NCBI GenBank assembly: GCA_030149205.1
Contig: JASBSB010000007.1
Location: 270,001 to 302,000 of the forward strand
Length of the DNA: 32,000 nt
Direction of reading: 5' to 3'
DNA from: Candidatus Heimdallarchaeota archaeon
Lineage (GTDB): Archaea > Asgardarchaeota > Heimdallarchaeia > Heimdallarchaeales > Kariarchaeaceae
Below, in pieces: positions 7,278 through 26,471 of the stretch. The notes beneath the pieces were generated by a model. That model searched no databases. It was not told the DNA's origin and worked only from the letters and a program-made list of their open reading frames with translations. The first letter of the stretch is position 1. Each line of letters opens with the position of its first letter. The translations under genes were made by a program, and so were the position numbers.

Positions 7278-9617
7278 TCAATCATTTTTCATTTTTTTCA
7301 AGGGTTGGTGGTGGACAATTACCGCACTATCAATATTTTTCATTATTCTATAAGCTAAGTTAGTTCTGATTCTATTCCAAAGTCCTTTATCTTTTGTATG
7401 TCCAATCAACACAGCATCTGGTTCACGTGCCACAGTAGCCTGTTTCAGAGCCTTTACAAAATTATGTCCGTATAAAAGGACTGGAATGACATTCATTCCC
7501 AATCGGTTGAATATATCTCTAGAGTATTCCTCAAACCTTTCTTTACTTCTAATTAATTCATCAAAGTTTGCAGCATCTTCTAAAGAGATGGTTTGGGGAA
7601 TCTCGATTATATGATATGCAAAGATTTTACTCTCTTCACCAACCGAGGATATTAATTTTGCCCATCTTGCCAAATAAAAATCCCTCTCAGATCCATCTAA
7701 GAGAACAAATAGATCATTGATATCTTTCCTTTTCACACCATATTCGGGAGGATGAACCTGCAATATTGGTGTAGAGATTGTATCAACTATCTCTTTTGAA
7801 ACACTTCCAGCAGAAAGCCGATCAATAAGTGATTTTTTTCTTTTAGAGGCTAATGTAACAAGTTGATATTCTCCGTTGTTTATTGTTTGGATAATTGTTT
7901 CTGCAATATCACCGCTGTCAACTCGAATTAGATTATATTTAACACCATAATCTCTAAAGAATTTGAATGCGTCTTCTAGGTCTCTCTCTGGGCCAACGTG
8001 GATAATGTCAACTTCAACATTGTATTTCTTTGCAATTAAAGCACTTATCTCCCAATTTTTAGTCTCAAATTGGTCTCCAGAAATAGCCACAAGCATTCTG
8101 TTTAATTCAACAAAATATTCATCAACTGTGATGTCTGTTCCACTGAACTCTTGAATCAATTCCTTACCAAGTGGTTCTAAATCGTATTTCTTGAGATGAT
8201 CTTCATCTGTTTCCTTTGATTTTCGATTATAGTAATAATTCAATCCAAACGAAACTGTAAGAAATATGGTTAATGTTATCAAAGTAACCTGGGAATGAGC
8301 GATATTTGCTCCAATGAAAACGAATACCAAGATGAGATTAATTAAAATTAATATTGCACCTGCTTTTGCAAGATAATTTTTCTCTTTAGGGTAGAGTTTT
8401 ACAGCAGCAACATTTACAATAAAAAAGATCCCTAAAAATATAACTGATCCAACCTCAGCAATCTCTTCAGCATTCCCAAAAAAGGTGAATATCCAACTAA
8501 ATAGACTTGTAGCAATAATCGCTAAGTAGGGGACCTTACTCTTCTTACTTAGTTTTGCTAATGAGGTTGGAAATGACTTGTAGTCAGCAAGCACATATGC
8601 TAACCTTGAAGAACCTAAAAGTGTTGCATTAATGGCAGAAGTGGTACTTGCAGCAGCCCCCGCTGCAACCAAAATGACTGCCCAATACCCCAAAAATTCA
8701 ACGGCTTGAAGTAGAGCTGCCTCATTAATTTTAGTCTTATGTGGATCGAGTAAACTGAAGGTTGCAAGTGTAACCAGAACATAAGTTATAGTTACTAGAA
8801 TTACTGAAATAATCATACCAAGTTTTACATCACGAGTGGGATTTTTTAGTTCCTCAACAGTGTTAGCAATTACTTGAAACCCTTCATAACTCACAAATAT
8901 AATGGCTCCTCCCATGATCATACTCCCTATTCCGCCAAATAATCCAAAATTTTCACCACTAGTTGGATGTAATGGGTTCACATCCTTGAAAAAGGGTGTG
9001 TAAGCAGAAGGATTGAATACTGAGATACCTACAGCAGCTATAAAAAATAGGACAAATAATTTGAATAGGACTATAACGTTTTGGACGACCCCAGTCTCTT
9101 TAACTCCCCTTAAATTTATTAGCATAAATGTAAAAATAGAGATAAATGCAAACACCTTTCTGCCAGTTATATGTGTGTTAAATCCACCAATAATTAGACC
9201 AGAAAACCCGAGTTCAAAAAAATGTATGTTTGTAAGTTGAAATATCAACTCACTTGTATATAACCCAAAGGTGAAGGCATACAGGGCAATTGTAACAGAG
9301 TACCCTAACCAAAGCATAACTCCAACAACATTTCCTATTGATTTATTTTCAAACCCTTTCCTAAGAATAACAAATTCTCCACCAGCAGATGGGTATTTTG
9401 CCACTAACTTGTAATAGGAAATAGCGGTAAGAAACACAATTATACCACCCATCAAAAAACTGACCATAGCAGAAGGACCGGCAATATTTGCCAATTTTCC
9501 AAGAACTGTAAAAATTCCTCCACCAATCATTGCCCCCACTGCAATTGAAACCGCTTCAACAAGCCCTAGTTCCTTTGCAAACTCAGTTTCCCCCAAAATT
9601 GAACTTTCATGACTCAT
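7278..9617 (-). CDS. APC-family amino acid permease fused to two universal stress protein (USP)-like domains
   Basis: APC motifs 'GAMIGGGIF', 'AGP', 'AGGE', 'FVSYEGFQ' and 'SSRLAYVLA'. The C-terminal ~280 aa contain two USP-like modules ('RMLVAISG...LVTLAS' and 'LFVLLDGS...DAVLIGH...SAVIVH'). Confidence 0.9.
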   Translation of the reverse strand: MSHESSILGETEFAKELGLVEAVSIAVGAMIGGGIFTVLGKLANIAGPSAMVSFLMGGIIVFLTAISYYKLVAKYPSAGGEFVILRKGFENKSIGNVVGVMLWLGYSVTIALYAFTFGLYTSELIFQLTNIHFFELGFSGLIIGGFNTHITGRKVFAFISIFTFMLINLRGVKETGVVQNVIVLFKLFVLFFIAAVGISVFNPSAYTPFFKDVNPLHPTSGENFGLFGGIGSMIMGGAIIFVSYEGFQVIANTVEELKNPTRDVKLGMIISVILVTITYVLVTLATFSLLDPHKTKINEAALLQAVEFLGYWAVILVAAGAAASTTSAINATLLGSSRLAYVLADYKSFPTSLAKLSKKSKVPYLAIIATSLFSWIFTFFGNAEEIAEVGSVIFLGIFFIVNVAAVKLYPKEKNYLAKAGAILILINLILVFVFIGANIAHSQVTLITLTIFLTVSFGLNYYYNRKSKETDEDHLKKYDLEPLGKELIQEFSGTDITVDEYFVELNRMLVAISGDQFETKNWEISALIAKKYNVEVDIIHVGPERDLEDAFKFFRDYGVKYNLIRVDSGDIAETIIQTINNGEYQLVTLASKRKKSLIDRLSAGSVSKEIVDTISTPILQVHPPEYGVKRKDINDLFVLLDGSERDFYLARWAKLISSVGEESKIFAYHIIEIPQTISLEDAANFDELIRSKERFEEYSRDIFNRLGMNVIPVLLYGHNFVKALKQATVAREPDAVLIGHTKDKGLWNRIRTNLAYRIMKNIDSAVIVHHQPLKKMKND

Positions 9618-13572: not shown

Positions 13573-13593
13573 CTCGCTATTTATCATTGATTG

Positions 13594-16500
13594 ATGAGTG
13601 ACCGGTCTCCATATACTTATTTTGAAAAATTTAACTCATCAGATGAACAGACTCATTTAACAACTGACGAGAAATGGACAGTACTAAACGCTATGTTTGA
13701 GGAGCTGGGGTTGGTTAGACAACATCTTGACTCTTACAACTCGTTTATTGACAAAGGACTCGCACAGATTGTTGAAGAAGAGGCAGAGATTAAGCCTGAA
13801 GAGGCTTCTGGGATGTCTGTGATTCTTGATGAAATTCGTGTTGGTGAACCAGAGATAAAAGAAGCAACAGGGTCCAAATCTGAGATTTGGCCAATGGATG
13901 CCAGAATCCGAAATCTCACATATGCAGCACCATTGACTCTCACAATGATCGCAAGCTATCCAGATGAACAGCATGGTGAACCACGAAGTGTTAAAGAAGA
14001 GCAATTTATTGGCTATCTCCCAATTATGTTAAATTCAAAGAAATGTAGGTTGGCTACAGCAGACGTGAATACAAAGATAAAACATGGAGAAGACCCACTG
14101 GACGAAGGTGGATACTTTATAATCAATGGTTCTGAAAGGGTTCTGGTTACCCAAGAAGACCTTGCTCCGAACAGAATATTAGTCGAAAAATTAGAAAACA
14201 AACCAGCAACCTCCCTTGCAAAGGTATTTTCTGCCTTGAGAGGATTTAGAGCACCTGTATCGTTAGAGAGAAGCAAAGACGGAAATTTAAAGGTATCATT
14301 TCCAAGTGTAGCTCGTAAAATCTCATTAATTGTTTTGTTAAGAGCACTAGGGATGGAAAAAGAAGGTGAGATTGCAAGAAAAATTGCGACAACACCAAAA
14401 ATTGCCCAAAAATTATTACCAGTACTCCAGGCAGAGGATGTGAGGAAAAAGGATGAAGCATTAGATTTCATTGGGAAAAGAGTAGCTGTTGGTCAGACCA
14501 AGGAATATCGAATGAACCGTACTCAACAGGTATTAGATCGTTATCTTCTCCCCCACCTCGGAAACGATGAAAAAGATAGGATTAAAAAAGCGAATTTTCT
14601 CTGTCAAATGGCTCAAAAGGTGCTAGAACTAGAGACCGGTGAGAGGTTGGCAGATGATAAGGATCATTATGCTAACAAAAGATTAAATTTAGCTGGGGAT
14701 CTTCTTCTTCTCCTATTTAGATATGCATTTAGAAATCTCATAAGGGACGTAAAATATCAACTGGAAAGAAATGTTAATAGAACAAGAAGTTCAATTCTTA
14801 GAACTGCTGTAAGAGCAGATGTAATCTCTGAACGGTTGCGTCATGCACTTGCGACAGGTAACTGGGTTGGAGGGAAAGCTGGTGTCTCACAACTTCTCGA
14901 TAGAACCAACTACATGTCATCTCTAAGCCATTTAAGAAGGGTAGTGTCACCATTGGGGAGATCTCAACCTCACTTCGAAGCACGTGATCTTCACCCAACC
15001 CATTGGGGAAAAATCTGTCCTGCAGAAACACCAGAGGGGCCAAACTGTGGACTTGTGAAGAACCTTGCTCTACAGGCCTACATCTCAATTGACGTTGATG
15101 AAGACCATGTGAAAGAAGAAGTCCTAGAGTTAGGAGTCTCTGACGACCCAGAGATGGCTAGAAAGAGAGAAAATACACGTGTCTATCTAAATGGTGCTTT
15201 AATAGGGGTACATCCCAATGGAGAGCATTTGGCATATAAAATCAGACAAAACAGAAGGAATCGAATTATCGCTCCTGAAGTGAATGTTGCCTATTATTTA
15301 GAAACAAATGAGGTTCAGATCAATGCTGACCGTGGAAGAGTCAGAAGACCTCTAATAATTGTTAAAGATGCAAAACCTCTCTTAACGAAAGACCATGTTA
15401 GAAGAGTTGAGAACGGAGAACTTATGTGGGCTGACCTAACCAGACAAGGGCTTATTGAGTATCTTGATACAGAAGAAGAGGAAAACGCATACATCGCGAT
15501 GACTGCATCCGAGTTAAATGAGGATCATACACACCTAGAGATCTCTCCTGCATCAATATTAGGGATCTGTGCTTCACTTATACCATTCCCAGAACATAAC
15601 AGGTCTGATAGAAATGTGTATGAAGCCAGTATGGCAAAACAATCCTTAGGAATTTATGCAGCAAACTTTAGATTAAGAATGGATACAAGGGCACATCTTC
15701 TTCATTATCCACAGATACCAATAGTAAAAACACATGGGATAGATGCAATAAAATTCAACCTTAGGCCAGCAGGGCAAAACTTTGTAGTTGCACTCCTATC
15801 CTATGGTGGATATAACATGGAAGATAGTCTTATTATGAATAAATCCTCTGTTCAAAGGGGACTCGGGCGTTCTACGTTCTTTAGAGCTTATGTGAGTGAA
15901 GAAAGGAGGTATCCTGGTGGTCAACAAGACAAGTTTGTTATCCCTGGAAAAACAATCAGAGGGGCAAAAGAAACCACAATGTACAGACATCTTGCCGAGG
16001 ATGGTGTAGTTGAACCTGAGACCTTCGTAAATGGAAAAGCAGGGGATGTAATAGTTGGAAGAACAAGTCCCCCCAGATTCATGGAAGAACAACAAGATTT
16101 CGACCTAGAGGTAGAACAAAGAAGAGAAACCAGTCAATCAATGCGATTTGGAGAATCTGGAATAGTTGACTCAGTAGTTTTTACAGAAAACCAAGATGGA
16201 CATAAATTGGTCAAAGTCAGAATTCGTTCACTTAGGATACCTGAACTTGGTGATAAATTTGCAAGCCGACATGGTCAGAAAGGGATATTAGGGAATTTGG
16301 CTAATTCTGTAGACCTTCCTTTCACTGAGACAGGGCTTACTCCAGATTTAATTATAAACCCACATGCGATTCCTTCACGTATGACAATCGGTCAACTAAC
16401 AGAGTTGCTTTCTGGAAAGCTAGCAGCAGCATCTGGTAAGTTTGTCACAGCAACACCATTTGAAGGTGCAGAAATTGACGATATTGTTAGATCATTACAT

Positions 16501-16986
16501 CAACTGGGATATCAAAAATACGGTCGTGATATTATGTATGATGGAAGAACTGGGGAACGACTAGAATCTGATGTCTTTATTGGAATAGCCTACTATCAAA
16601 AGTTACATCACCTCGTTAATGATAAGATCCATGCCCGAGCAAGAGGACCCGTACAGATTCTCACGAGACAACCAACAGAAGGTAGATCCAGAGAAGGTGG
16701 GCTTAAGTTTGGTGAGATGGAACGTGACTGTTTGATAGGACATGGGACTTCTTTAATTCTTAAGGAGAGATTATTAGACGAGTCAGATAAATCAGAGGCT
16801 CTGTTCTGTGAACAATGTGGATTTTTGGCTCAATACAACCGAAAATTGGATAGATTTCAGTGCCCTATTTGTAGAGATGAGGTAAATGTCAGTAAAATCA
16901 TTGTGTCATATGCCTTTAAGCTATTATTGCAAGAATTAATGTCAATGGGAATTGCCCCAAGAGTTGAATTAAAAGAAAGAGCATAA
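13594..16986 (+). CDS. rpoB: DNA-directed RNA polymerase subunit B (Rpo2), unsplit
   Basis: Conserved motifs 'GLVRQHLDSYN', 'DEGGYFIINGSERVL', 'HPTHWGKICPAETPEG', 'GYNMEDS', 'GDKFASRHGQKG', 'NPHAIPSRMTIGQ' and 'GGLKFGEMERD'. C-terminal CxxC...CxxC zinc ribbon. ATG at 13594, with an alternative TTG at 13591. Confidence 0.99.
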   Translation: MSDRSPYTYFEKFNSSDEQTHLTTDEKWTVLNAMFEELGLVRQHLDSYNSFIDKGLAQIVEEEAEIKPEEASGMSVILDEIRVGEPEIKEATGSKSEIWPMDARIRNLTYAAPLTLTMIASYPDEQHGEPRSVKEEQFIGYLPIMLNSKKCRLATADVNTKIKHGEDPLDEGGYFIINGSERVLVTQEDLAPNRILVEKLENKPATSLAKVFSALRGFRAPVSLERSKDGNLKVSFPSVARKISLIVLLRALGMEKEGEIARKIATTPKIAQKLLPVLQAEDVRKKDEALDFIGKRVAVGQTKEYRMNRTQQVLDRYLLPHLGNDEKDRIKKANFLCQMAQKVLELETGERLADDKDHYANKRLNLAGDLLLLLFRYAFRNLIRDVKYQLERNVNRTRSSILRTAVRADVISERLRHALATGNWVGGKAGVSQLLDRTNYMSSLSHLRRVVSPLGRSQPHFEARDLHPTHWGKICPAETPEGPNCGLVKNLALQAYISIDVDEDHVKEEVLELGVSDDPEMARKRENTRVYLNGALIGVHPNGEHLAYKIRQNRRNRIIAPEVNVAYYLETNEVQINADRGRVRRPLIIVKDAKPLLTKDHVRRVENGELMWADLTRQGLIEYLDTEEEENAYIAMTASELNEDHTHLEISPASILGICASLIPFPEHNRSDRNVYEASMAKQSLGIYAANFRLRMDTRAHLLHYPQIPIVKTHGIDAIKFNLRPAGQNFVVALLSYGGYNMEDSLIMNKSSVQRGLGRSTFFRAYVSEERRYPGGQQDKFVIPGKTIRGAKETTMYRHLAEDGVVEPETFVNGKAGDVIVGRTSPPRFMEEQQDFDLEVEQRRETSQSMRFGESGIVDSVVFTENQDGHKLVKVRIRSLRIPELGDKFASRHGQKGILGNLANSVDLPFTETGLTPDLIINPHAIPSRMTIGQLTELLSGKLAAASGKFVTATPFEGAEIDDIVRSLHQLGYQKYGRDIMYDGRTGERLESDVFIGIAYYQKLHHLVNDKIHARARGPVQILTRQPTEGRSREGGLKFGEMERDCLIGHGTSLILKERLLDESDKSEALFCEQCGFLAQYNRKLDRFQCPICRDEVNVSKIIVSYAFKLLLQELMSMGIAPRVELKERA

Positions 16987-17090: not shown

Positions 17091-18059
17091 ATGGAAGAAT
17101 CTAAAACCCTTGAACAACGTCTAAATGAAAAAGTCAAAACTGGTGAGATAAGTGAAGCTGAATTTCAGGAGCTTTTTTCCAAATTTCAGGAGCTTGGGTT
17201 GTTAGGTTCACCTGTTCAGGGGTCAATGAAGAGAAAATCATTACTTGTCACGGGTAAGGAAACCATAACTGGAGATCTGTTAATTGATGGTAACCTCTCA
17301 GTGTATGGTGGATTAATTGTAAATGGTAGCGTCGAATGCAAAAAAGCATCAGTGAATGGTAAAGCTGAGGTCAAAAGACACTTTTATTCAAAGAGTAAGG
17401 TTATTGTGACTGGCAAACTATCAAGCAACACTCTAAATTCAGGAGGAAAAATTTCAATCGCTGGAACTATGAAAATCAATCAGGACATTCAATCAGAAGA
17501 TGAAATTAAAGTGTCCGGAAAACTTGTTGCTGGAGGAACAGTTATGTCTACTCAAAAAATAGTTGTACTTGGATCTGTGACCTCTGACAGTATAAAAAGT
17601 CAATCCACAATAAAAGTTAACGGAAAGGTTTACACAAATGGAAATGTTGAGGCTAAGAAATTTGTGGCGTTAATCCCCACATCATCAGTAATTTCCGGAT
17701 CCTTACTAGCTGATGAGATAGAAATTGGGAATGAAAGCTCTGAAAATCCCATCTTTACGTTAGACCTAAATATATTGGATGATGAAGAAGAAATACCTGA
17801 TTTTGTAACCAATCTACTAAAAAACATCCTTCCGAAGTCAATTAATTTAAATTTCGAAAAATATTTTGGTGATCCTTTTACAATAAAAGGAGACCTAATT
17901 GGAGATAAAATCTACCTAACCAATGTTCACGTACATGGAGACGTTAGGGGGAGAAGTGTAAAACTTGGGAAAAACGTAGAAATTAACGGAAAGTTGTATT
18001 ACACTCAATCCCTTAATGCAGATACCGAACTTCAAGATATAGAAATAATCCAACAATAA
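17091..18059 (+). CDS. Polymer-forming cytoskeletal (bactofilin-like) beta-helix protein with N-terminal SHOCT-like segment
   Basis: Many short 'G.(I/L/V).V.G.(V/L)' repeats. The N-terminus 'EKVKTGEISEAEFQEL' resembles SHOCT. Confidence 0.75.
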   Translation: MEESKTLEQRLNEKVKTGEISEAEFQELFSKFQELGLLGSPVQGSMKRKSLLVTGKETITGDLLIDGNLSVYGGLIVNGSVECKKASVNGKAEVKRHFYSKSKVIVTGKLSSNTLNSGGKISIAGTMKINQDIQSEDEIKVSGKLVAGGTVMSTQKIVVLGSVTSDSIKSQSTIKVNGKVYTNGNVEAKKFVALIPTSSVISGSLLADEIEIGNESSENPIFTLDLNILDDEEEIPDFVTNLLKNILPKSINLNFEKYFGDPFTIKGDLIGDKIYLTNVHVHGDVRGRSVKLGKNVEINGKLYYTQSLNADTELQDIEIIQQ

Positions 18060-23081: not shown

Positions 23082-24203
23082 TCATAAGTAACTTATTAAG
23101 ATCTCACCAGCATTAAAATTTAAACGATATTTACTCTTAAAATAATTAACAATTTCTGAAAATATGTTTTTAAGTAACTCCGACCTGTATTCACCAGAAA
23201 CTGTACTCATGTTAGTTGCCAAAGTAAAATCAATAACCTTCACCCCATCATCTGTAAGGAGTAAATTGTCCACAGAAAAATCCCTGTGGAAAATATGACA
23301 CCTTTTGAATAAATCAAAAAATACATTCAGGCTTCGGTAAAGGTAGTCCATTGGGTTTCCCAGTAGTCGTAAATCGGTCTCTCTAATCGTAGGTGCAAGT
23401 CTCCCTCTATAAAAAAGTGGCTCAAGCCATAGCACAGGTCCATTTCGTTGATAAACCTGAGGAGCTGGAATATTCTCACTATTAACAAATTTTAGCAATT
23501 TTTCCTCATGCCTTGCCAACTTTTCCGGGATATCCCATCTTGTTCTTTTTTTCTTTGTTTTGGAATATTTTTTTACTCCATTTGAATATGGGTAATAGAT
23601 CTTCAAAATTCTATTTTGATGATTGTGGGTTTCAGTTATAAAAATCTCTGCCTCCTTCCCTTTGGCGATAATCTGTGACTTGGTGATAAAACGATCTGAT
23701 TTCAACTGACTAAGAATCTGATTTGTTGTTTTCAAAGATTTGAATTCAAGCTTATTTACATTGATATTCGAGGTCTCTAGGATCTTCCACTCACCCGTAA
23801 GCCCATCTAACTTATATTTTGCACCATAGCCCCGCATGGCAAAGCGTACAAACAAGGACGCACTTTCTGTTGAGTTTGGCTTAGCATTCTTTTTCATCCC
23901 CTCAAGTTGTAACAGGTGTTGCAACGACAAAAATCTATTCTTACCACCTCGAGTAATAAGAATAAACTTCTGATTTTGTAACCCTGTCCAATGAACCTCC
24001 CCCAGGTCATCTATTACTATGTAGTCTGGCTTGAGATGTCGTATCAAATAAAAAAGCCTCTGCTTTGATATCCTTGAAAAACTAACCTCTGAATCGTAAC
24101 TACAGTTCCATAGATAAATAGAATAATATGCTCTTTTTTGGCTGGATCGTAGATTACCTGAGTAAATGTCAACCCCCATAAGCTTCTGGTCGTACATCAT
24201 CAC
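23082..24203 (-). CDS. Fusion of a COG2433 (DUF460-protein) N-terminal-like domain and a RIO-family atypical kinase
   Basis: The C-terminal half has RIO motifs 'IAKGKEAEIF', 'LKIY', 'GRLAP', 'HRDFSVDNLL' and 'VIDF'. The N-terminal half ('LMGVDI', 'RLFYLIRHLKPDYIVID', 'RGYG') resembles the N-terminus of archaeal COG2433 proteins. Confidence 0.8.
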   Translation of the reverse strand: MMMYDQKLMGVDIYSGNLRSSQKRAYYSIYLWNCSYDSEVSFSRISKQRLFYLIRHLKPDYIVIDDLGEVHWTGLQNQKFILITRGGKNRFLSLQHLLQLEGMKKNAKPNSTESASLFVRFAMRGYGAKYKLDGLTGEWKILETSNINVNKLEFKSLKTTNQILSQLKSDRFITKSQIIAKGKEAEIFITETHNHQNRILKIYYPYSNGVKKYSKTKKKRTRWDIPEKLARHEEKLLKFVNSENIPAPQVYQRNGPVLWLEPLFYRGRLAPTIRETDLRLLGNPMDYLYRSLNVFFDLFKRCHIFHRDFSVDNLLLTDDGVKVIDFTLATNMSTVSGEYRSELLKNIFSEIVNYFKSKYRLNFNAGEILISYL

Positions 24204-24353
24204 AATAACAAAATCAGTAATAATCCTTGGTTACTCTCTATTTATAGGTTATGTTTTCAGAATTGAAACTATATGAAACTCAAATTATTTTATCAAAAGT
24301 TCCTCAGAATTAAAAATGGGAATTTTTTCTAACATCATCAAATAGTGATTCTT

Positions 24354-24393: not shown

Positions 24394-26004
24394 GTGACGG
24401 GGTTCCAATTTCCTCTTGTGGGGATTCCAGAACAAGATCGGGGAAATATAGAATACAAGCTACTGCTTAGAGATACAAACCCAGAAAGATTAGATGAATT
24501 GGCAACCCAAATGAAATTTAGACTCTTTGAAGGAGGAGGAGAAGCAATTTATATCATCGGAATACGAGATGATGGCTATCCTGAGGGGATCAGCGAAGAG
24601 GAAATGACAATATCATTGGAAACCCTACAATCAATAGCAAGAAAAATTAATGCATACACTGAGATATTACGTTCCCACGAAGATTCCGAAACTAAATTAA
24701 AAATTACCGAATTATTGGTCAGGAAGCATAAGGATCCAGAAAAGCTTCCAATGGATATTCCTGTTGTAACACTTGGAAATGTGGATAGTGGAAAATCCAC
24801 CCTGTTGGGAGTTCTACAGACTGGAAATTTAGATGATGGCAGGGGAAGTGCAAGAATCAGCATATTTAGATACAAACATGAGCTTGAATCAGGACGGACA
24901 TCCTCCATAAGTCAGGTGACAATAGGATTTAAAGTCGACGGTAAAATTGTCTCTCAGGATAAGATACATGTTCCAACAGATATGGAGATTCTCGAGGAAT
25001 CAATTAAAACTATTTCATTCTATGACCTTGCTGGCCATGAAAAATACCTTAAGACCACAATCTATGGATTGTCAACGATTAACCCAAAATTTGCATTGTT
25101 AATTGTTGCTGCGAACCAAGGGGTGTTACCCATGACTAAAGAGCATCTGGGACTCGCAGTATCCCTTAGGATACCATTAATAATAGTCATAACAAAAGAG
25201 GATATGACACCACCCCAAAAATATGAAGAGACTCTCAATTCCGTCAAAAAGATACTTCGAATACCAGGTGTCTCAAGAATCCCACTTCTAATTTACAACG
25301 AGAATGATCTCTATCTTGGAATTAATCACCTTCCAAAAGGTGACATTGTCCCCATCATCTCAGTATCTTCTGTTAAGGGAACAAACATAAATCTCTTAAC
25401 TAAATTTCTAAACTTATTACCAATAACCAAAACTCAAAAGGATAAACAAGCACTTGAGTTTGGAGCTTACATAACTGAAATTTTCTTCGTCACTGGTGTG
25501 GGGACTGTTGTATCAGTCCAGATCTACTCCGGTAGTCTTAGGGTTCAAGATTTTGTTCATCTAGGGCCATTTGAGGGTGGTATCTTCAAAAAAGTACGGG
25601 TCAAATCAATCCACTACAAAAGGGTTCCAACCAAGGAGGTGTTCAGTGGACAAACTGCCACATTTGCATTACATCAGGTAAAGAGAGAAGAAGTGCGAAA
25701 AGGAATGGTTCTACTTGGGATGAATATGAATCTAGGTGCGAGTAATGGATTTGTTGGAGAAATTTATATTCTATACCATTCAACAACAATAAAGCAGGGG
25801 TATGCTCCTGTGGTTCACACCCAATCAATACAACAATCTGCAAAGATTGTAAAGATGAACAAAAGTGTTCTAAGGACTGGAGATCGCGCAAAGGTAACCT
25901 TTGAGTTTATGTACAGACCCGAATTCATTTCTATTGGACAAAAGTTTTTGATTAGAGAGGGTAAAACAAAGGGGATAGGTCAAATAATCAAACTTATTCC
26001 ATAA
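24394..26004 (+). CDS. GTPBP1/GTPBP2-family translational GTPase
   Basis: N-domain 'GNIEYKL...ATQMKFRLFEGGGEAIYIIG'. G1 'GNVDSGKST', family motif 'DDGRGSAR...HELESGRTSS', G3 'DLAGHEKY', G4 'TKED'. EF-Tu-like beta-barrels with 'FLIREGKTKGIG'. GTG start with GAGGA 9 nt upstream. Confidence 0.95.
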   Translation: MTGFQFPLVGIPEQDRGNIEYKLLLRDTNPERLDELATQMKFRLFEGGGEAIYIIGIRDDGYPEGISEEEMTISLETLQSIARKINAYTEILRSHEDSETKLKITELLVRKHKDPEKLPMDIPVVTLGNVDSGKSTLLGVLQTGNLDDGRGSARISIFRYKHELESGRTSSISQVTIGFKVDGKIVSQDKIHVPTDMEILEESIKTISFYDLAGHEKYLKTTIYGLSTINPKFALLIVAANQGVLPMTKEHLGLAVSLRIPLIIVITKEDMTPPQKYEETLNSVKKILRIPGVSRIPLLIYNENDLYLGINHLPKGDIVPIISVSSVKGTNINLLTKFLNLLPITKTQKDKQALEFGAYITEIFFVTGVGTVVSVQIYSGSLRVQDFVHLGPFEGGIFKKVRVKSIHYKRVPTKEVFSGQTATFALHQVKREEVRKGMVLLGMNMNLGASNGFVGEIYILYHSTTIKQGYAPVVHTQSIQQSAKIVKMNKSVLRTGDRAKVTFEFMYRPEFISIGQKFLIREGKTKGIGQIIKLIP

Positions 26005-26075: not shown

Positions 26076-26471
26076 ATGTCTGAATATATCCAAAAAAATG
26101 CAAAGAACATTATCTTTGATATTAACGAAAGCAAAGAAAACAGGATACAAGCAAGTTTTGCTTTGATGAACGATGGGAGTGAAGAAGCTGTCCACCTCTT
26201 GGTAAATGCACTGTTTACAGAACCCAGTCCTATTGTAAGACATGAAATTGCATTCTCATTGGGTGAAACAGCCTCACCACAGGCTGTCCCCAATCTGATA
26301 AAGGCAATGGAGGAAGACGAAAATATTTTTGTTATCCATGAAGCAGCGTTAGCCCTTGCCACGCTAGGCGATAAACGTGCTGAAGAACCAATTAGAAAAC
26401 TCCTAACACACCCAAACCCTGATGTGGCTGAAAGTGCAGAGATTGCATTGCAACGCTTATTATCCTCATAA
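26076..26471 (+). CDS. HEAT-repeat protein with two His-Glu motifs; half-length deoxyhypusine hydroxylase-like
   Basis: 131 aa. 'VRHEIAFSLG' (H56-E57), 'VIHEAALAL' (H88-E89) and terminal 'VAESAEIALQRL' are collinear with one half of eukaryotic DOHH as I recall it. Confidence 0.8.
   Translation: MSEYIQKNAKNIIFDINESKENRIQASFALMNDGSEEAVHLLVNALFTEPSPIVRHEIAFSLGETASPQAVPNLIKAMEEDENIFVIHEAALALATLGDKRAEEPIRKLLTHPNPDVAESAEIALQRLLSS

Follow-up and report, generated by a model that had tools for sequence, protein, structure and literature searches.

A COG2433-type RNase H-fold domain fused to a RIO kinase of a third clade in Kariarchaeaceae (Heimdallarchaeia)

Asgard archaea are close relatives of eukaryotes, and COG2433 is a widespread archaeal protein that is uncharacterised. 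Among the RIO proteins, Rio2 has a winged helix, which is thought to help target it. In archaea Rio1 and Rio2 act as ATPases; neither is essential, and maturation of the 16S 3'-end is affected when they are lost. The P-loop lysine of Rio2 couples rRNA contact to ATP hydrolysis, and the metal-binding aspartate is the putative phosphorylated intermediate of Rio ATPases (PMC5815136). Protein-kinase roles have also been reported for archaeal Rio1, involving proteasome alpha1 (PMC5007285). Reviews list four RIO subfamilies, and the winged helix of Rio2 is the sole N-terminal accessory domain among them (PMC5007285). A full nuclease active site has been predicted for the DUF460 domain of COG2433 (PMC3985635), and RIO and DUF460 genes cluster across archaea according to PMC5007285, which cites Esser and Siebers (2013). 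A tested function for COG2433 was not found in the searchable papers.

Here, we analysed a 32,000-nucleotide stretch (the window) of a Kariarchaeaceae genome (Candidatus Heimdallarchaeota archaeon, contig JASBSB010000007.1). The original prediction, made from the letters of the DNA, had proposed a single uninterrupted reading frame joining a COG2433-like N-half to a RIO kinase. The frame is open over 373 residues with zero stops and contains all motifs quoted at the time. Its features are as follows:

23082..24203, minus strand: fusion gene, 373 aa from a GTG start; the database version has 371 aa and starts two codons later
24239..24246, minus strand: TATA-box-like TATAAATA, 36 nt 5' of the fusion start, a candidate spotted by eye
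23808..24182, minus strand: RNase H-fold domain spanning aa 8-132; its homologue is the N-terminal domain of COG2433/DUF460-containing proteins
23727..23807, minus strand: linker, aa 133-159, a short beta-hairpin and then a less ordered segment; its length differs between homologues
23085..23726, minus strand: RIO kinase/ATPase domain, aa 160-373, of the third Heimdallarchaeia RIO clade
23652..23660, minus strand: P-loop G182-K183-E184, holding the RIO P-loop lysine and invariant in 82/82 RIO rows
23505..23603, minus strand: beta3 Lys201, flexible loop and alphaC Glu233, placed by the RIO alignment
23265..23288, minus strand: catalytic loop H306-D308-N313, placed by the RIO alignment
23229..23231, minus strand: metal-binding Asp325, at the position of the RIO phospho-aspartate

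The fusion gene is convergent with a glycerol kinase gene, the two stop codons lying 1 nt apart, and divergent from a gene for a GTPase of the GTPBP/EF-Tu family. Its GC content (0.364) is close to that of the genome (0.355). An identical protein with the same flanking genes is encoded on a 321-kb Logan contig from a separate assembly, so the fusion is not an assembly join; together with homologues in other genomes this rules out the chimera that had been considered a danger to the original prediction. The AF2 model of the entire protein has a pLDDT of 90.4 and a pTM of 0.71.

That the C-terminal half is a RIO kinase was borne out by Pfam RIO1 (PF01163), which matches residues 202-361 (E 1.7e-12; 47.7 bits, cut-off 22), and by Foldseek, whose best matches are RIOK1, A. 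fulgidus Rio2 and Rio1, and RIOK3 (E 1.7e-12 and up). In an alignment of 82 RIO sequences (the window's copy, six other fusions and 75 other RIO proteins), G182-K183-E184, K201, E233, H306, D308, N313 and D325 are invariant throughout. The window's copy is peculiar at three positions. R307 is found in this protein only, the other 81 rows having G, A or S, and L328 and I347 replace a Gln three residues past Asp325 and an Asp of the following helix, both of which are kept in 81/81 others. The flexible loop between K201 and E233 comprises 31 residues, compared with 39 in Rio1 and 37 in Rio2, and is modelled with lower confidence. According to the model the C-lobe is trimmed, with three helices after D325 and without the substrate-binding subdomains of ePKs. 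The window's genome holds four PF01163 matches: rio1, which adjoins NMD3, rio2, which encodes a winged helix, Bud32 on contig C7, and the fusion gene. As canonical rio1 and rio2 are thus both present elsewhere, the fusion is an extra RIO protein.

The closest solved relatives of the fused kinase are Rio1/RIOK1 proteins, several of them solved on pre-40S particles. With archaeal Rio1 and RIOK1 (A. fulgidus 1ZP9/1ZTH; human 4OTP, 6ZXG), which gave the best PDB sequence and structure matches, it shares the RIO fold, the leading helix, the GKE P-loop, the beta3 Lys, the alphaC Glu, the H-x-D...N loop and the metal-binding Asp. Unlike Rio1, it stands outside the Rio1 clade, has the shorter flexible loop (31 vs 39 residues), is extended by an insert behind the metal-binding Asp, lacks an S/T-G-K-E-A P-loop and carries the RNase H-fold N-domain. 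Archaeal Rio2 (A. fulgidus 1TQI/1ZAR) resembles the fusion in having a putative nucleic-acid-binding domain ahead of the RIO domain. However, the domain in the fusion is of RNase H fold and not a winged helix (no match to Rio2_N, PF09202, which the genome's own Rio2 does have), and the fused kinase stands outside the Rio2 clade and is devoid of the G-x-G-K-E-S P-loop of Rio2. Bacterial RioB (PA4780-type, NF041645) is likewise an additional RIO type and has an x-G-K-E-A P-loop, but the six RioB sequences, all bacterial, form their own clade (99/98) apart from that of the fusion, and the NF041645 score on the fusion is far under the cut-off. A precedent for the arrangement is the Kae1-Bud32 fusion (PRK09605), in which a RIO-like ATPase follows a partner domain whose topology is RNase H-like (ASKHA). 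The NCBIfam match of PRK09605 on our protein is weak and confined to the kinase region; in contrast to Kae1-Bud32, the kinase is RIO and not Bud32, and the N-domain consists of one small COG2433-type RNase H fold.

Two maximum-likelihood trees, rooted on Rio2 and leaving out partial rows (G004, G013b), Bud32 and some near-duplicates, placed the seven fused kinases in one clade (100/97 and 100/98). This clade is nested among stand-alone kinases of 260-370 aa and lies apart from Rio1, Rio2 and the six bacterial RioB. In the second tree, support for the branch that connects the f7 lineage with the others reached only 86/85, and the deep branching order is weakly supported. The larger group, to which we refer as the third RIO clade, is marked by a gap of 31 residues between beta3 Lys and alphaC Glu (in most rows) and by an insert of 10-13 residues after the metal-binding Asp. 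At E 1e-40, a profile of it finds members in 62 of 351 Asgard genomes, and 57 of these belong to the window's class. Its genes are solitary, with neighbours that are not common across families. Two Kariarchaeaceae genomes (G005, G009) each carry a fused and a stand-alone member. The original prediction had seen in the fusion a third RIO architecture; this stands insofar as a COG2433-type N-domain precedes a RIO domain, but the protein is not a Rio2 with its winged helix-turn-helix swapped, since its kinase belongs to a separate, mostly stand-alone clade. A description of this third clade was not found in the searchable literature. We also noted that the clade is widespread in Heimdallarchaeia, mostly in stand-alone form, with a few members in other Asgard genomes and up to three copies in the f7 lineage.

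The relationship of the N-terminal half to COG2433 became visible with profiles and structures. The N-half has zero Pfam family matches, BLASTP against the genome's own COG2433 was not significant, a PDB sequence search with the N-domain gave nothing significant, a search of 1.84 billion proteins with the single N-domain as query returned itself and a repeat artefact only, and an Atlas feature search with the N-domain gave zero usable matches. A profile built from the N-domains of five fusions, however, matched in 77 of 83 Heimdallarchaeia genomes, with a best non-fusion E of 6.6e-17. These non-fusion matches are confined almost entirely to the opening ~130 residues of a COG2433-type frame of ~700 aa, in nearly all Heimdallarchaeia genomes. 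Alignment of the fusion N-domain with residues 2-136 of the genome's own COG2433 by hhalign gave a probability of 91.5% (E 8.7e-7), and the best ESM Atlas match to the AF2 model of the N-domain was a DUF460-containing protein of 664 aa (TM 0.77 across residues 5-140). The proposed likeness to COG2433 therefore holds, and it is limited to the beginning of that protein: fold and Asp/Asp/Glu set are the same, but the GGWSQ domain, the DUF460 RNase H domain, the coiled coil and the C-terminal domain of full-length COG2433 are all absent from the fusion. The idea that the N-domain and DUF460 proper arose by tandem duplication found no support (hhalign probability 12%). The Atlas matches also included stand-alone proteins of 168-177 aa from Methanobacteriota that have the same fold (TM about 0.7); judged by these models, they suggest that the N-domain is an autonomous module.

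The N-domain is modelled with a pLDDT of 89 as a five-stranded mixed sheet with flanking helices, an RNase H-like arrangement. RNase H-fold domains made up almost all of the best 50 rows of a VIA-align search (Z up to 9.3), among them an exonuclease domain from a family B polymerase (Z 9.2, rmsd 3.1, 117 aligned residues), an IS110 recombinase (Z 8.5) and RuvC (Z 8.0). Three residues of the domain, and no others, are invariant, being kept in 60/60 aligned domains: D12, where strand 1 of the AF2 model ends, D65, at the close of strand 4, and E69, four residues further on. The C-terminal helix has no fixed acid; position 113 is Glu in just 19 of the 60. Hence, of the RuvC/YqgF-type acid set, the acids of strands 1 and 4 are invariant, whereas the C-terminal-helix position is variable. 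The additional invariant Glu69 could stand in for the missing acid. Because D12, D65 and E69 are invariant while a fixed C-terminal-helix acid is lacking, the borrowed domain is probably a metal-binding RNase H-fold domain with a non-standard site, and nuclease activity is possible. The net charge of the N-domain ranges from +9 to -6 among the fusions, so a basic RNA-binding face is not conserved.

In the window's genome, the full-length COG2433 gene (L028:7874-9925 on contig C2; 684 aa) lies directly behind rio2. Its product consists of the N-terminal RNase H-fold domain, a GGWSQ-x-R domain, Pfam DUF460, a coiled coil and a C-terminal domain. DUF460 (PF04312) is a second RNase H domain and occupies residues 249-358; it has no match at the fusion gene. 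The original prediction had referred to an annotation of COG2433 as a possible nuclease. The published nuclease prediction concerns DUF460, which the fusion does not have, and not the first domain that was borrowed. As a separate observation, the second domain of COG2433 holds an invariant GGWSQ-x-R motif at residues 147-179. Of five COG2433 proteins compared with the Pfam model of acVLRF1, a release-factor family, four exceeded the cut-off with this motif; the match spans just ~33 residues, but it gives a hint that COG2433 may act on peptidyl-tRNA or tRNA. The COG2433 N-domain profile had zero matches in 68, 3 and 7 genomes of the Asgard families f14, f18 and f27, many of them near complete, and, judged by this profile, lineage-wide loss of COG2433 in these families is possible.

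Gene order points in the same direction as the fusion. In 58 of the 74 Heimdallarchaeia genomes listing both genes, rio2 has the same orientation as full-length COG2433 and sits upstream of it at a distance of at most 1.2 kb, and a RIO gene precedes COG2433 at 11 of 16 loci of other Asgard groups (kin are counted in this figure and are not independent). Gene order and fusion both therefore tie the RIO and COG2433 families together. The link to this neighbourhood is an indirect one, because the fused kinase is not Rio2 and the domains of the fusion come in the reverse order to the rio2-COG2433 gene pair. In addition, the fused N-domains fall outside the COG2433 clade of the Kariarchaeaceae (100/99; long branches) and are equally distant from the COG2433 of their own genome and from others. 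A recent read-through of the rio2-COG2433 operon was rejected on account of the reversed order, the kinase type and the position of the N-domains.

The fusion occurs in six of 12 Kariarchaeaceae genomes (63-94% complete), in one of them with a stop between the domains. Thus, it is not a one-off. Intact copies of 373-421 aa are present in five genomes from three genera (the window's genome G000, G001, G002, G005 and G007), and one more fusion, truncated at its 5' end, was found on a metagenome contig. The copy of G009 (L030:2-949) is cut by the contig edge and has an in-frame TAG in the linker between N-domain and kinase; it may represent a split gene, a pseudogene or a sequencing error. The second gene downstream of it encodes an APC-type permease resembling that at 7278-9617 of the window. 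By profile search, the fusion was not found in the six remaining family members (G003, G004, G006, G008, G010, G011; 68-94% complete). A second N-domain match in G008 was discarded as a chance match in an AAA/TPR protein. In a set of 301 Asgard genomes, wherever a second N-domain copy turned up outside Kariarchaeaceae, it was due to a split contig or to extra full-length genes. A pattern scan of all GTDB genomes, which uses one P-loop pattern, found zero fusions outside Kariarchaeaceae, and word-index searches returned the window's protein and one homologue only. The neighbours of the fusion differ in every genome, without conserved neighbours, ribosomal or other. A three-gene ribosome locus made up of the fusion, the GTPBP-type GTPase and a HEAT protein was considered and dropped, as it is absent at the other fusion loci examined.

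The fusions have diverged widely. Identity to the window's copy is 22-26%. Compared across one set of four genomes, the fused kinases are on average 31% identical, against 65% for Rio1 and 59% for Rio2; the fused N-domains average 26%, against 46% for COG2433's own first domain. The fusion diverges about twice as fast as rio1 and rio2. The gene tree disagrees with kinship, the same-genus pair G001-G002 sharing 33% identity and the cross-genus pair G001-G007 42%. The catalytic residues of both domains are invariant although identity is only 22-26%, a sign that both are under selection. The window's copy has diverged furthest (branch 1.68, median 0.26), with its insert and C-terminus shortened; by sequence it is the most eroded fusion, and it may be weakened. 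Taken as a whole, the fusion looks like the result of an old, single event in which a copy of the COG2433 domain was joined to a third-clade kinase.

Tentatively, and with somewhat less than even confidence, we favour the reading that the fusion is an accessory, lineage-restricted RIO ATPase whose borrowed domain targets it to RNA or pre-ribosomes. The RNase H-fold domain would bind RNA or a small-subunit particle via a metal held by D12, D65 and E69, standing in for the winged helix of Rio2, and would park the RIO domain on the bound particle; ATP hydrolysis at D325 would then drive release or a checkpoint. Most likely, the protein would act under particular conditions such as ribosome stress, repair or recycling and not in routine assembly. 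That the N-domain also cuts RNA seems doubtful. Fast divergence, patchy presence, an N-domain charge that is not conserved and the 6-8 residues by which the flexible loop, the rRNA-contacting element of Rio2, is shortened relative to Rio1 and Rio2 argue against a tight, conserved rRNA contact, and for this reason other explanations have to be weighed. The fast divergence and patchy presence, together with solitary genes, changing neighbourhoods and the conflict between gene tree and kinship, would suit a signalling or conflict kinase unrelated to ribosome assembly, for instance in stress or defence. Aberrant nucleic acid would be sensed or cut by the RNase H-fold domain, which would then turn on a protein-phosphorylating RIO domain. 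The third-clade insert of 10-13 residues sits where canonical kinases have their activation segment, and the protein-kinase roles reported for archaeal Rio1 (PMC5007285) are in line with this. We nevertheless regard it as unlikely, since PADLOC returned weak generic kinase-loop matches only (best E 2e-4), no defence genes were seen beside the fusion copies, a viral copy of the fusion was searched for and none found, and GC content equals that of the genome (0.364 vs 0.355).

The N-domain might instead be a protein surface that docks on COG2433 or its partner, the fusion delivering a RIO kinase there or competing, with no nucleic-acid binding involved. RNase H folds often serve as scaffolds, full-length COG2433 is present in every genome with an intact fusion, and neither a conserved charge nor an invariant acid in the C-terminal helix is seen in the N-domain. 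We consider docking similarly unlikely, because the sole invariant residues are three acids at active-site-like positions, suggesting metal binding rather than an interface, and because the fused N-domains are as far from their own genome's COG2433 as from others. The same three acids, invariant in 60/60 domains, and top structural neighbours that are all nucleases or recombinases would fit the strong form of the original prediction, a coupled enzyme whose active, metal-dependent nuclease trims or cuts rRNA at times set by the RIO cycle. This appears very unlikely given that the C-terminal-helix acid of RuvC/YqgF and of DUF460 proper (H-x-x-D; PMC3985635) is not fixed (E in 19/60) and that fold scores of Z about 9 single out no nuclease family. 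Least probable is a relic in decay: two spare gene copies would have fused by chance long ago, the product would now be disappearing, and the window's copy would have little or no function. Failure to find the gene in half of the Kariarchaeaceae genomes and the in-frame stop in G009 agree with decay, as do the longest branch of the window's copy, its shortened insert and C-terminus and its lack of the Gln and Asp of the 81 other rows; against it stand the frames of five genomes from three genera, which are open over 373-421 aa, a model that folds (pLDDT 90) and the retention of every catalytic residue at about 25% identity.

The fusion represents a further RIO architecture in a further RIO clade of Heimdallarchaeia, and as a fusion it speaks for RIO ATPases and COG2433 being functionally linked, two families for which the earlier tie was gene clustering only. 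The original prediction had called the fusion undescribed, and no description was found in the searchable literature on COG2433, DUF460, RIO and Asgard archaea, subscription papers being outside this scope; databases label the sole named homologue just as a RIO1-family protein. What is new is the fusion itself. Both parts and their genomic association are already known, the clustering of RIO and DUF460 genes being reported in PMC5007285. Its range is narrow, one family of uncultured archaea, but it singles out a small, well-folded domain of 130 residues and three residues as testable, and rio2 and DUF460 are also present in culturable archaea. A new RIO class with its own nuclease, that is, an ATP-gated RNA cutter on small subunits, is a quite unlikely outcome. 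If true, COG2433, conserved beside rio2 across archaea, would be assigned to rRNA maturation or ribosome quality control.

Some other genes of the window deserve mention. The neighbour at 24394-26004 (plus strand) encodes a GTPBP1/EF-Tu-family GTPase with an N-terminal extension, which lies next to the fusion here and at no other fusion locus, and 26076-26471 (plus strand) encodes a HEAT-PBS protein of 131 aa. A bactofilin-like repeat protein with an N-terminal SHOCT-like helix is encoded at 17091-18059 (plus strand), directly 3' of the gene for a single-chain RNA polymerase subunit B (13591-16986).
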